64,000 nucleotides of DNA from Halioglobus sp. (GTDB taxonomy: Bacteria > Pseudomonadota > Gammaproteobacteria > Pseudomonadales > Halieaceae), in assembly GCA_028825045.1 (NCBI GenBank), contig JAPKAY010000011.1, positions 17,161 to 81,160 on the forward strand, read 5' to 3'. Positions within the stretch are counted from its first letter, which is position 1. The number at the start of each line of letters is the position of its first letter. The notes under the pieces were generated by a model that searched no databases, was not told the DNA's origin, and saw only the letters and a list, made by a program, of their open reading frames with translations. Below, piece by piece: positions 25,897 through 28,293 of this stretch. The translations under genes were made by a program, and so were the position numbers.

Positions 25897-27072
25897 CTAG
25901 CTCCCACCCAGCTCATTGGACTGCTTCGCAGCTTCCACCCCAGGCCAACCGTAGTCGGTATAAAAATTACTCAATTTCGATTCAATGGTTTTCCTGGACA
26001 ACCCATAGTCATCCAGACTGTAACGGAAATCAGTCTTGTGAGTTTTCTCCCGGTCTTCCTGCAATTGCAGGAACTGATCATAACTTTCAGACAGCGGCAT
26101 ACCGAGTGTGCGATAAATCTTGTGAACAGTTGCACACGGCTGTGTGGTCAGCTCTCGATAGTCAACCACCACTTGAGGCGTCGACGGCTGTTGCGATAGC
26201 ACCTCTCGCGGATGATGATAACTTTCAAAGGATATATCCGTTAACATTTCCAGCGAACGGCCGTAATCGGCACGCGTCCAGCCTTTCCCCTTCCAGGTCA
26301 GTTCTACAAGCTTTAACACGCTGGGTATGCACTGGGCGGGATCGCGCATCATAACTACGATCCTGGCATCGGGAAAAGTCTCGATGAGTGCCTCTACCCA
26401 TCCGCACATTACCGGGTTCTTGCTCAGATGAGTCTTATTCCCACCATTGCGCAATAACTGCCGTTTGATGCACTCACGATAGTGATGCATCCATCGCCGG
26501 CGTTTTTTTGCGGGCATTTGATCGATATGGAAGATATCGATAACATCCATCATAGGAATATCAAGGGACCACTGCTGCGTGACAAACGCCGCTCTCATGA
26601 CAAACTGATCTTCTTCGGAATTCCACAGGCTCATATCATGCATGTGCCGGTACGGGCCAAACGTTTTATCGTCCCACGCGACTAGACGCCGGTGAATCGC
26701 TTGTCCGAACCACTTCTTATCTACATAGCCAATTACACGAATAACTTTTTTCTGTAACAGCGAGGGAAAAAACATTTCCCAGTAGAGAAAGTAACTGAAG
26801 GTCTCACCATCTGCAGCCAACAATCGGTGCACCAGCGTTGTACCGCTGCGCGCGTGACCCACGATAAATACAGGTTGCTCTACTTTTTGACGCCAAAGTG
26901 CGGGAAAAATCAGATAATCCAGCATAAAGCAGATAGCGTGGAACAAAGTTTCCAATGGCACCAGTAGTAAAAGGCGCAGCAGTGTGCGGGAGCGTCCCGA
27001 CCACTGCCGTAATGACCAGACATGACGCAGAACTCGCCAGTAGTATTGGCCGTCAAAATACACGGGCAGCAA
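25897..27072 (-). CDS. PAPS-dependent sulfotransferase (Stf3-like architecture)
   Basis: 5'-PSB loop PVFIVGHARSGTT, LSKNP, and 3'-PB RDP...IPS. Hydrophobic N-terminal extension. Start TTG 27072 or GTG 27063. Confidence 0.88.
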   Translation of the reverse strand: MLPVYFDGQYYWRVLRHVWSLRQWSGRSRTLLRLLLLVPLETLFHAICFMLDYLIFPALWRQKVEQPVFIVGHARSGTTLVHRLLAADGETFSYFLYWEMFFPSLLQKKVIRVIGYVDKKWFGQAIHRRLVAWDDKTFGPYRHMHDMSLWNSEEDQFVMRAAFVTQQWSLDIPMMDVIDIFHIDQMPAKKRRRWMHHYRECIKRQLLRNGGNKTHLSKNPVMCGWVEALIETFPDARIVVMMRDPAQCIPSVLKLVELTWKGKGWTRADYGRSLEMLTDISFESYHHPREVLSQQPSTPQVVVDYRELTTQPCATVHKIYRTLGMPLSESYDQFLQLQEDREKTHKTDFRYSLDDYGLSRKTIESKLSNFYTDYGWPGVEAAKQSNELGGS

Positions 27073-27096
27073 CCCTACGGGCGAACGGATGCCTCA

Positions 27097-28293
27097 CTAT
27101 GCGGGCGAGAGCAACACGGGCATATCCTTAAACCCGTGAATGCTGTTGGATCGAATAAAGACCGGATCGGCACAGGGTTCGATACCTTTAAACCGCGCAA
27201 AAAATTCCTCAAAAAACACCCGAGCTTCCATGCGCGCCAGATTCGCGCCCAGACACAGATGAATTCCGTGTCCGAAGGCCATATGCGGATTTGGGCTGCG
27301 TGTAATATCGAAGTTCATCGGGTCGGCAAACACCTCCTCGTCAAAATTGGCCGAGCTGTAAAGCAACACTACCCTATCGCCCTCCCGTATCTTTTGTCCG
27401 CGAACTTCAGCATCGCAGGTCGCGGTCCGACGAAAATAGTGTAGCGGGCAGGTCCAGCGGAGCATTTCCTCAACCGCCAAAGGCAGCTGTTCAGGATTGC
27501 CCTTCAACCGCTCATAGAGCTCCGGGCGTTTAAGTAGTTCGAACATGCCACTGCTAATGAGACCGCGGGTGGTCTCATTACCGGCGACGGTCAGTTGTAT
27601 GAAAAGCGAGGCAAACTCCATCTCCGATAACTGATGCCCTTCTACTTCTTGATTGATCAGCAAGGAAATCAGGTCATCACCCCCCTGATTCTTGCGCTCA
27701 GTAGCGAGCTGAAAACCGTAGGTGCCCATCTCGATACTGGCCTGATTGATCTCTTCAGGTGTACCTCCCAGATCTGGATCTGAACCTGACGTTTGTAGAT
27801 CGGACCAGCGGCGAATTTGCGCCCACATGTCTCGCGGAATCTCCAGCATGGAGCAGATAACAGCAGTAGGTAGGTCACCTGCCAGACTTTCCACAAAATT
27901 TACTTCCTGTGGAGAAGATATTTGCGCCATCACTTCACGAGTAATCCGGCGCACCTGCGGCTCTAGCTCCGCCAGCATGCGCGATGTAAATCGAGTAATC
28001 ACAGCGCGGCGCAAGGGACCATGCTTGGGTGGATCCATACCCAATAATTGATTGCGGGCCATCTCCAGAATATCCGGCGGCAGATCATCCACCATGACAA
28101 ACCCCTTTTCCGCCGAAAAGGTTTTAGAATCCCGCGATACCGCCAGTACATCTGCGTGCTTACTCAGCACCCAGTAGCCATGCCCCGCCGGATGTTGCTG
28201 CCAGTAAACCGGAGCGTTCGCCCGCAGCCAGGCAAATTGCTCATGCGGAATACCCGCAGAGTAATTATCCGGGTTATAAACATCTATTTCCAC
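27097..28293 (-). CDS. Cytochrome P450, CYP125/CYP142/CYP124-clan-like
   Basis: I-helix AGNETT, EEMLRW (ExxR), SANFDEEVF.DP..F.I.R.PNPH and heme motif FGHGIHLCLG. Likely start GTG 28293. Confidence 0.9.
   Translation of the reverse strand: MEIDVYNPDNYSAGIPHEQFAWLRANAPVYWQQHPAGHGYWVLSKHADVLAVSRDSKTFSAEKGFVMVDDLPPDILEMARNQLLGMDPPKHGPLRRAVITRFTSRMLAELEPQVRRITREVMAQISSPQEVNFVESLAGDLPTAVICSMLEIPRDMWAQIRRWSDLQTSGSDPDLGGTPEEINQASIEMGTYGFQLATERKNQGGDDLISLLINQEVEGHQLSEMEFASLFIQLTVAGNETTRGLISSGMFELLKRPELYERLKGNPEQLPLAVEEMLRWTCPLHYFRRTATCDAEVRGQKIREGDRVVLLYSSANFDEEVFADPMNFDITRSPNPHMAFGHGIHLCLGANLARMEARVFFEEFFARFKGIEPCADPVFIRSNSIHGFKDMPVLLSPA

Follow-up and report, generated by a model that had tools for sequence, protein, structure and literature searches.

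Lineage-specific adjacency of a CYP125/124-type P450 gene and a predicted PAPS-type sulfotransferase gene in a Halioglobus steroid catabolic island

The locus and its genes

In the window (the whole stretch of Halioglobus sp. DNA that was analysed, 64 kb), a cytochrome P450 gene and a sulfotransferase (ST) gene lie in a steroid side-chain and ring catabolic island. The island genes comprise ChsE-like ACADs, ChsH2-like and Ltp2-like genes, thiolases, KstD and KshA. The ChsE-, ChsH-, Ltp2-, KstD- and KshA-like genes among them give context support to sterol side-chain hydroxylation by the P450. The genes on both sides of the P450–ST boundary are listed in Table 1.

Table 1. Genes and spacer around the P450–ST boundary, in descending order of position
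Feature	Position	Strand	Evidence and remarks
MarR-family regulator	29993..30445	+	Pfam MarR_2 1.8e-10; divergent from the LLM-cupin-P450-ST run
Luciferase-like monooxygenase (LLM), TIGR03617 'F420-dependent LLM' subfamily	28900..29925	-	TIGR03617 1e-103, above cut-off
ChrR-type cupin protein	28295..28747	-	Pfam Cupin_7 1.9e-13; stop 1 nt before the P450 GTG
CYP125/124-type cytochrome P450	27097..28293	-	Pfam p450 1.3e-27; 47-48% identity to CYP125MRCA (reconstructed ancestor)
P450–ST spacer, 33 nt up to the GTG (likelier start)	27064..27096	-	24 nt to TTG 27072
PAPS-type sulfotransferase (ST), Stf1/Stf9 fold	25897..27063	-	Pfam Sulfotransfer_3 6.1e-29; PAPS motifs invariant
SDR oxidoreductase, translationally coupled to ST (TAGGTGATG)	25039..25896	-	Pfam adh_short 8.8e-40
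X465, 465-aa DUF1214-like protein	23381..24778	-	Weak Pfam DUF1214 match
SDR2, second SDR, final gene of the same-strand run	22435..23214	-	Pfam adh_short_C2 1.6e-63

The P450 starts with GTG (28293), and its reading frame is extendable to 28329. Its translation carries the heme loop FGHGIHLCLG, the I-helix AGNETT and the ExxR motif as EEMLR. The closest relatives of solved structure were CYP125MRCA (1.9e-119), CYP124 (4e-82), CYP125 (~1e-77) and CYP142 (~1e-57). The identity of 47–48% refers to CYP125MRCA, a reconstructed ancestor and not an extant CYP125, and is to be read alongside the rule of P450 nomenclature that places family members at ≥40% identity. Bit scores to extant enzymes were close (280 for CYP124, 253–265 for CYP125). 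Judged by its sequence, the P450 probably hydroxylates the terminal position of sterol or methyl-branched side chains. Single-copy orthologues (61–88% identity) occur in 47 of 121 Halieaceae genomes, and cupin and P450 are adjacent in 14 of the 20 P450 loci of other genomes with no ST nearby. We know of no such conserved upstream cupin partner in mycobacterial CYP125/CYP124 genes.

The longest reading frame of the ST (25897–27072) has TTG at 27072 as its first possible start. Homologues and a paralogue within the genome align from the GTG at 27063 (388 aa). The 5'-phosphosulfate-binding loop GHARSGTT occupies residues 69–76, with R72, S73, G74 and T76 invariant in alignments, and in the 3'-phosphate motif RDP...S, R240, P242 and S248 are invariant among relatives. 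Down to ~40% identity, the 5'-PSB loop, the 3'-PB Arg/Ser and the KNP segment do not vary. The PDB entry of Stf1 (2zq5) was matched at 2e-14 by sequence, and the top matches of the AF2 model (pLDDT 77) were STF9 (TMq 0.62) and STF1 (TMq 0.52). By loop, motif and fold, the protein is predicted to be a PAPS-dependent, Stf1/Stf9-like sulfotransferase. No NCBIfam model matches the window ST, the names of ten distant cluster representatives gave no hint, and the only link to Stf3 is the Stf3 KO name that the JGI pipeline gave to three close homologues. Residues 28–46 form a hydrophobic N-terminal helix (Kyte-Doolittle 1.87 vs a maximum of 1.12 in Stf1). An added N-terminal extension was considered and rejected: the P-loop lies at residue 69 here vs 98 in Stf1, and the segment is merely hydrophobic.

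Contig C78 of the host genome carries sat and cysC side by side (APS kinase match of 5.8e-70 beside a Sat-type ATP sulfurylase), and contig C90 carries cysQ (CysQ 231.6 bits, above cut-off). The profile search of the host genome gave no match to CysD and 17 matches to Sulfotransfer_3. With predicted sat-cysC and cysQ genes present, PAPS supply is no obstacle.

An earlier note on this DNA had described a CYP125-clan P450 upstream of an ST on the same strand, an intact PAPS loop and a catabolic-island setting, and had made its proposal dependent on PAPS synthesis genes; all of these were recovered. The gap of 24 bp that it gave between the two genes is correct for the TTG, and the likelier GTG makes it 33 nt. 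Of the hydrophobic N-terminal extension that it saw in the ST, the helix stands and the added length does not.

Distribution of the P450–ST adjacency

The P450 and ST genes can be read in two ways. In one, the P450 hydroxylates the terminal carbon (C26 or C25) of a sterol or isoprenoid and the adjacent ST sulfates it as in cyp128-stf3, which would give a sulfated end product (detoxification, storage or signal) or one that is then handled by SDR and X465. In the other, two independently conserved modules came to lie side by side in one lineage. The same-strand arrangement with a gap of 24–33 nt is in line with a joint function. No terminator-like or promoter-like site was found in the P450–ST gap of the window, and the two genes are probably cotranscribed in the window genome.

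An ML tree of 104 STs placed every P450-adjacent ST (26 of 26) in one clade with a support of 100/97. Three members of this clade lacked the adjacency: two on truncated contigs and the second copy of the host itself. The adjacency arose once, in one ST clade of 26 species. Within this clade, it was retained in every assessable species despite surrounding rearrangements. In two loci (L103 and L106), cupin, P450 and ST were kept without SDR and X465 downstream. This retention favours sulfation of the P450 product, and we counted it against a reading as two modules. The single origin itself speaks against the joint function, as does the spacer, which ranged from 1 to 306 nt across the 26 related species. 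The long spacer of H. japonicus contains two very stable REP-like hairpins (z -8.8) and no T-tract terminator match, which points to a loose coupling of P450 and ST and does not prove separate transcription.

The cupin–P450 pair was found directly upstream of the ST in only 25 of the 80 species-level loci. Among the sampled genomes having both genes, only 6 of 36 had them adjacent, and these in one ST clade, so that a pairing of the cyp128-stf3 type is not kept wherever both orthologues occur. The orthologues can be far apart, e.g. at 1.35 and 1.95 Mb in genome G046. In G046 and G010, which are of the same genus, the same island is found as cupin-P450-SDR2 with no ST, SDR or X465 between, and ST-SDR-X465 lies elsewhere beside an LLM gene. 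Distant relatives of the ST (31–44% identity) had no adjacent P450 in the four contexts sampled, which likewise argues against a functional pair.

Across the 121 Halieaceae genomes, 36 had both P450 and ST, 9 had the ST only, 11 had the P450 only and 65 had neither (odds ratio ~24). The co-occurrence persisted within KshA-positive and within KshA-negative genomes. At the genus level, hand-counted numbers were 16 (both), 4 (ST only), 6 (P450 only) and 14 (neither). This makes a shared pathway plausible and could reflect a direct link of substrate and product; like the retention, the odds ratio was counted against the two-module reading. On the other side, the P450 was missing from 9 of the 45 ST genomes, including the genus with a fused ST (see the following section), and the ST was missing from 11 of the 47 P450 genomes.

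The ST–SDR–X465 cassette and its mycobacterial relative

The neighbourhood of the ST was surveyed in ~100 Cellvibrionales loci, with 80 species-level loci for partner counts and 87 for gaps. The ST was almost always followed by SDR and/or X465, with a median gap of 0 nt. The gap between ST and partner was ≤30 nt in 70 of the 87 loci and ≤100 nt in all of them. Of the 80 species-level loci, 68 had X465 and 62 had the SDR ≤4 kb from the ST; X465 is the most constant partner of the ST. It is to SDR and X465 instead of the P450 that the ST is tightly coupled. In three genomes of one genus (g34), ST and X465 were even fused in one frame of 851–867 aa (called protein: 834 aa), and this genus has neither a P450 orthologue nor a KshA orthologue. 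A paralogous ST-SDR-X465 cassette with identities of 68, 72 and 62% is located on contig C28 of the host, with no P450 and no cupin. In total, the host genome has at least five adjacent pairs of an ST and an Rv3531c-like gene. The cassette on C28 and the fused gene of g34 lie outside steroid islands, and 18 ST genomes had no KshA orthologue.

The LLM gene adjoins the ST cassette also in loci without a P450 there (L024, L028, L031, L041, L152, L155 and L159). At another locus (L175), an ST of 43% identity is directly followed by an LLM of 69% identity. Synteny of the MarR regulator with the LLM was seen at most loci of the P450-linked clade and also at several P450-less loci.

A PDB profile search with X465 returned only 6ans, labelled 'uncharacterized', and the AF2 model (pLDDT 70) resembled no structures other than structural-genomics entries without a known function (6ans, 3u07 and 2p3y). 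Cry toxin- and SIDT-like assignments were rejected as jelly-roll noise (TM ≤0.18). A literature search on DUF1214 yielded nothing relevant, and to our knowledge none of X465, Rv3531c, Stf1 and 6ans has a described biochemical function.

M. kansasii has a 379-aa Rv3531c-like gene, an SDR and Stf1 in this order, tightly packed between KstD/HsaEFG and KshA. X465 shares 27% identity with the 379-aa protein over nearly the full length (E 3e-40); the SDRs matched at E 2e-14 and the STs at E 1e-17. The top host matches of Stf1 were on C78 (34%) and C88. The window ST (24%) was not the reciprocal best match of Stf1, which was also counted against the two-module reading. Because closer Stf1/Rv3531c-like pairs are found on C78 and C88, sequence comparison places the window cassette in a paralogous subfamily of the mycobacterial set and not among its orthologues. 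A published list has Rv3531c among the genes predicted to be needed for growth on cholesterol (PMC6429209). A literature search on Rv3529c, Stf1 and cholesterol found no functional study. The occurrence of the three-gene composition in the mycobacterial cholesterol cluster speaks for an accessory step in catabolism rather than for a branch of biosynthesis.

Interpretation and comparison with known systems

We consider it somewhat better than an even chance that the locus is a lineage-specific juxtaposition of two independently conserved modules, in which ST and X465 act together on a steroid or isoprenoid that carries a hydroxyl group. The first module would consist of the cupin and the CYP125/124-type P450. 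Most likely, the target of the P450 is the terminal carbon in the side chain of a sterol or methyl-branched isoprenoid, and its hydroxylation would start side-chain beta-oxidation by the surrounding ChsE/ChsH/Ltp2/thiolase genes. The second module would be ST, SDR and X465, often with a TIGR03617-type LLM nearby, as a divergent relative of the Rv3531c-Rv3530c-Rv3529c set. In it, a membrane-associated ST may transfer sulfate from PAPS, supplied by sat-cysC, to a hydroxyl on a steroid or isoprenoid intermediate and hand the sulfate ester to X465 for further processing, while the SDR would set the oxidation state of the neighbouring carbon. Sulfation would then be a transient working step of lipid catabolism, and no stable sulfolipid would be made. 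The hydroxyl made by the P450 would be one candidate acceptor for the ST, with neither gene requiring the other. We infer the substrate class and the catabolic role from this context, and the hand-over to X465 from gene fusion and coupling only.

Hydroxylation by the P450 followed by sulfation of its product, as the earlier note proposed, is possible and partly supported; it is not the best-supported reading, and we regard it as unlikely. A functional unit of P450 and ST is not supported: their adjacency is confined to one clade and 6 of 36 genomes, with a variable spacer, and the ST is coupled or fused to other partners. CYP125 enzymes take the C26 oxidation through to the acid for CoA activation, and an alcohol trapped by sulfate would oppose this catabolic flow of the island. 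Besides adjacency and co-occurrence, the presence of PAPS genes and the Stf3 KO name on the three close homologues are in its favour, and CYP125MRCA, which among solved structures is nearest to the P450, makes 25- and 26-hydroxy products and has cholesterol, phytosterols and vitamin D3 as substrates (PMC12100521). For the stable sulfated sterol that the same note expected from a biosynthetic branch, the mycobacterial three-gene set points the other way, to catabolism.

A broader and doubtful proposal is that an Stf1-fold ST and an Rv3531c/DUF1214-like protein, fused in some bacteria, form a two-component 'sulfate, then process' system in mycobacteria and marine gammaproteobacteria, as a widespread and so far undescribed step in the aerobic breakdown of steroids and isoprenoid lipids. 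PAPS-dependent sulfation by the ST would turn an alcohol into a leaving group, and elimination or substitution would fall to the partner; in the Halioglobus clade, the P450 would supply the alcohol (a hydroxylate-sulfate-eliminate route).

It is improbable that the cassette has a biosynthetic role with no relation to the island, making a stable sulfated membrane lipid (e.g. hydroxy-fatty or isoprenoid), with the proximity of the P450 as a neutral accident of rearrangement. The hydrophobic helix of the ST suggests work at the membrane, the cassette is also found outside steroid islands (C28, the g34 fusion and the 18 genomes without a KshA orthologue), more distant ST relatives occur in tailoring-type contexts, and an Stf1-like ST of gut bacteria sulfates hydroxy fatty acids (PMC13449962). 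Against this, two phyla have the cassette within or next to genes of steroid or lipid catabolism, Rv3531c is on the list of genes with a predicted requirement for growth on cholesterol, and no linked lipid-synthesis or export genes were present in the loci examined. That the ST-like protein transfers no sulfate from PAPS, being an inactive scaffold or using another donor and serving only as a partner of X465, is very improbable: an activity is known for neither Stf1, Stf9 nor the window ST subfamily, and NCBIfam has no matching model, whereas the invariant PAPS motifs, the sat-cysC operon and cysQ without a CysD match, and the 17 Sulfotransfer_3 matches argue for real PAPS use.

If the ST used the product of the P450 as its substrate, the locus would be the first counterpart in Proteobacteria of the cyp128-stf3 logic, here with sterols. 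Better founded is the finding that an Stf1-family ST of unknown role is tied to a constant Rv3531c/DUF1214-like partner: fusion of the genes, translational coupling, and conservation in two phyla within clusters for steroid or lipid catabolism link the two. In the M. tuberculosis cholesterol cluster, Rv3529c-Rv3531c have long lacked an assigned function, and their chemistry could be tested in a cultured, non-pathogenic Halioglobus or in M. smegmatis.

CYP125 and CYP124 are the closest solved relatives of the window P450, which adjoins sterol side-chain beta-oxidation genes. The window differs in its proteobacterial host and in bit scores that are about equal for extant CYP124 and CYP125 (280 and 265). 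A CYP125/124-type P450 with a conserved cupin is documented in proteobacterial sterol islands, whereas an influential survey (Bergstrand et al. 2016) had reported no Cyp125 or Cyp142 orthologues in Proteobacteria (PMC4810484).

The precedent cited in the earlier note is sound: in M. tuberculosis, cyp128-stf3 (Rv2268c-Rv2267c) hydroxylates and then sulfates a lipid, giving sulfomenaquinone S881 (PMC6469627, PMC7404182). In both cases, a P450 gene adjoins the gene of a PAPS-type ST. Unlike that pair, the window P450 is of the CYP125/124 type and not CYP128, and its context is a steroid island and not menaquinone. Moreover, the window ST has SDR and DUF1214-like partners, none of which is described for the cyp128 operon, and adjacency of the window type is limited to one clade.

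In the ST domains of CurM and olefin synthases and in retinol dehydratase, sulfation makes a leaving group, and a partner domain or the enzyme itself eliminates it. The structural matches of the ST model include such activating sulfotransferases (4gox, 4gbm and 1x8k), weakly (TMq ~0.3) and for the general fold only. The KR-ST-TE order of CurM echoes SDR, ST and X465 of the window cassette. X465 is no thioesterase, and the analogy may serve as a guide to how the cassette could work, not as a claim of membership.

Compared with the mycobacterial Rv3531c-Rv3530c-Rv3529c set, identities are low (24–30%) and the gene order of the window is reversed. The hydrophobic N-terminal helix of the window ST is absent from Stf1, and X465 is ~90 residues longer than the Rv3531c-like protein. 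Both sets bring together a DUF1214-like protein, an SDR and an Stf1-fold ST, adjacent and on one strand (23381–27063 in the window).

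Gene run and host background

The host is a Halioglobus-type gammaproteobacterium of the Halieaceae (OM60/NOR5), with its nearest named homologues in Halioglobus and Haliea MAGs and in H. japonicus. The GC content of the window is ~53%. The sulfotransferase (ST) lies in a run of genes on one strand, from which a MarR gene diverges. X465, a DUF1214-like protein, is separated from the SDR by 260 nt (24779–25038) and from the second SDR (SDR2) by 166 nt. Therefore, the tight part of the operon in the host is cupin–P450–ST–SDR, and X465 may have its own promoter in the window. Elsewhere, the window is an island of steroid-catabolism type, in which acyl-CoA dehydrogenases resembling ChsE are found together with thiolases, KstD, KshA and genes like ChsH2 and Ltp2; the earlier note had already described this catabolic setting.

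Genes of the run containing the ST
Order	Gene	Position	Strand	Remark
1	LLM (luciferase-like monooxygenase), TIGR03617-type	28900–29925	−	TIGR03617 1e-103, passes subfamily cut-off
2	Cupin, ChrR-type	28295–28747	−	
3	Cytochrome P450	27097–28293	−	
4	ST	25897–27063	−	
5	SDR	25039–25896	−	
6	X465, 465 aa	23381–24778	−	DUF1214 match weak
7	SDR2	22435–23214	−	

A second LLM gene is located at 37240–38406. The TIGR03617 subfamily is named F420-dependent, yet the host is a gammaproteobacterium. LLMs of this type are a repeated neighbour of the ST cassette, and at locus L175 an ST with 43% identity is immediately followed by one. A DUF3604 protein directly follows ST–SDR in several other genera (L037, L038, L042, L057, L126, L138 and L141) and is thus another recurring neighbour; these copies are 55–56% identical to the window copy (42578–44509).

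The ST matched Sulfotransfer_3 (6.1e-29). Its PAPS loop (GHARSGTT) is intact as noted earlier, and the Arg...Ser 3'-phosphate motif is invariant. The best structural matches of the predicted model (pLDDT 77) were mycobacterial STF9 and STF1. The hydrophobic N-terminal segment was recovered as a helix at residues 28–46, which is absent from Stf1 (mycobacterial Rv3529c). The ST likely starts at GTG 27063, giving 388 aa as in its homologues. With this start, 33 nt lie between the P450 stop and the ST, compared with the 24 bp of the earlier note. No match to a terminator or promoter was found in this gap.

The PAPS synthesis genes, whose absence would have counted against the proposal of the earlier note, are present in the host genome, which has 17 Sulfotransfer_3 matches. 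On contig C78 (C78:14636–16454; L001:219–2037), an ATP sulfurylase of the Sat type (395 aa) adjoins an APS kinase (205 aa), ~13 kb from a pair of an ST and an Rv3531c-like gene, and CysQ is present. By gene content, the host can both synthesise PAPS and recycle PAP. In a search of the host genome, CysD had no match and the PAPS_reduct family a single one; this suggests a PAPS supply dedicated to sulfation and separate from assimilation.

Conserved partners of the ST and the P450

The ST and the P450 were each searched in 121 Halieaceae genomes, the regions were retrieved and the window genes were mapped onto them. A second scan (one genome per species) covered 80 further ST loci across Cellvibrionales. 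Of these 80 loci, 68 had X465 and 62 had the SDR within 4 kb of the ST, and the genes were arranged in several orders. The median gap between the ST and its next partner (X465 or SDR) was 0 nt; 70 of 87 loci had a gap of ≤30 nt, and none had a gap of >100 nt.

A fusion of ST and X465 into one reading frame of 851–867 aa (called protein: 834 aa) occurs in a single genus, in three genomes, at L049:7552–10056 (genome G091), L050 and L051 (G034 and G058). The fusion gene stands alone, divergent from a TetR gene, and neither a P450 nor a KshA orthologue was found in these genomes. Its neighbours are arsenic-resistance-type genes (ACR3/SBF, LMW phosphatase).

The host carries a second ST–SDR–X465 cassette (C28:28055–31503; L014:7055–10503) with identities of 68, 72 and 62%. 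No P450 or cupin adjoins it; a 136-aa ORF and a nitroreductase lie upstream instead. There were 346 ST relatives at E ≤1e-30. Four contexts sampled at 31–44% identity were all unlike that of the window: one had carbamoyl- and methyltransferases, another a DAG kinase and PLD, a third a sulfatase together with an EcKL kinase, and the last an LLM directly downstream, 69% identical to the window LLM. None of the four contained X465 or an adjacent P450.

None of the 2265 homologues of X465 carries a functional name. The only structures similar to the predicted model (pLDDT 70) were functionally unassigned proteins from structural genomics (6ans from Burkholderia, VPA0106 and VPA0735). Polar residues are invariant at many positions, which points to a binding or active site.

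The best solved relatives of the P450 were CYP125MRCA, the reconstructed CYP125 ancestor (1.9e-119, 47–48% identity), CYP124 (4e-82) and CYP125 (about 1e-77), in line with the CYP125-clan P450 of the earlier note; its place upstream of the ST on the same strand is confirmed. Its orthologue is single-copy in 47 of the 121 genomes (61–88% identity). Only 1 nt separates the P450 from the cupin gene, and a cupin directly precedes the P450 with no ST nearby in 14 of 20 loci of other genomes. The ChrR-type cupin is a conserved upstream partner of the P450 in many genera; to our knowledge, no role has been described for a cupin alongside CYP125-type enzymes. Two further genomes of the host's genus, G046 and G010, have the same island, ordered ECH, cupin, P450, SDR2, SDRa, thiolase, Ltp2, and their ST–SDR–X465 sits elsewhere in the genome, beside the LLM.

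History and statistics of the P450–ST adjacency

An ML tree built from 104 distinct STs placed every one of the 26 P450-adjacent genes in one clade (support 100/97), whose other members were only two truncated contigs and the host C28 copy. Therefore, the juxtaposition arose once and was kept in every assessable descendant. The P450–ST spacer within this clade ranged from 1 to 306 nt. The 306-nt spacer of H. japonicus (L097:9695–10000) contains a pair of long and nearly perfect hairpins (MFE −162 kcal/mol, z −8.8) and no T-tract terminator. These hairpins look like REP-type repeats, and similar sequences occur in the L094, L098 and L018 spacers.

Co-occurrence of P450 and ST, counted without correction for kinship
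Set	Both	ST only	P450 only	Neither	Statistic
All 121 genomes	36	9	11	65	odds ratio 24
KshA-positive genomes	26	1	7	6	p = 0.003
KshA-negative genomes	10	8	4	59	p = 1.5e-5
By genus (hand count)	16	4	6	14	

About a fifth of the ST carriers lack the P450, and a similar share of the P450 carriers lack the ST. The counts show that organisms of one kind carry both modules, which probably serve the same broad physiology. Co-occurrence alone does not establish that the P450 feeds the ST.

Reading of the cassette and known systems

The data fit best with two modules that are each conserved independently and became neighbours a single time, in the Halioglobus lineage. The cupin–P450 pair would most likely be a terminal hydroxylase opening the degradation of sterol or methyl-branched isoprenoid side chains, and the ST would act together with X465 and an SDR. 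We infer that sulfation in this cassette is a transient step of lipid catabolism, because ST and X465 show both gene fusion and translational coupling, because the set occurs in catabolic clusters of two phyla and because there are known enzymes of the ST fold in which sulfate serves as the leaving group (CurM, olefin synthase, retinol dehydratase). The latter gave only weak fold matches to the ST model.

The earlier note proposed the P450 product as the ST substrate; its observation is confirmed, whereas its interpretation has partial support. Two loci (L103 and L106) retain cupin–P450–ST with no SDR or X465 downstream, which favours some P450–ST coupling. The co-occurrence of the two genes stood, but the main partnership of the ST is with X465 and the SDR instead, and we consider the route from the P450 product to the ST unlikely. 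A stable sulfated sterol as the product of a biosynthetic branch has the least support among the readings. The interest lies mostly in the ST–X465 partnership and less in the P450–ST pair.

The part of the Stf1 sequence printed in a PDB alignment was used as a query; it retrieved mycobacterial Stf1 orthologues, and the M. kansasii locus was read. There, a single strand carries in close packing a 379-aa gene that matches no Pfam family, an SDR and Stf1, flanked by KstD/HsaEFG and KshA. This is the Rv3531c–Rv3530c–Rv3529c set of the M. tuberculosis cholesterol cluster. X465 matched the 379-aa protein over nearly its full length (27% identity, E 3e-40), the window SDR matched the M. kansasii SDR (30%, E 2e-14) and the ST matched Stf1 (24%, E 1e-17).

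The best matches of Stf1 in the host genome were on C78 (34%) and C88, each beside an Rv3531c-like gene; there are therefore at least five such pairs in this genome. Pairs of this kind are located at C78:92–2427, C88:18122–21787, C88:25364–28466 and C100:7984–9258. The C88 cluster also holds an LLM, TetR, OYE, a family III CoA-transferase and an EcKL/APH kinase, with a P450 4–6 kb away. By sequence comparison, the window cassette and the mycobacterial Stf1 set are of the same family and not orthologues. A P450 beside an ST is an arrangement already known in kind, and the case here is a variant of it.
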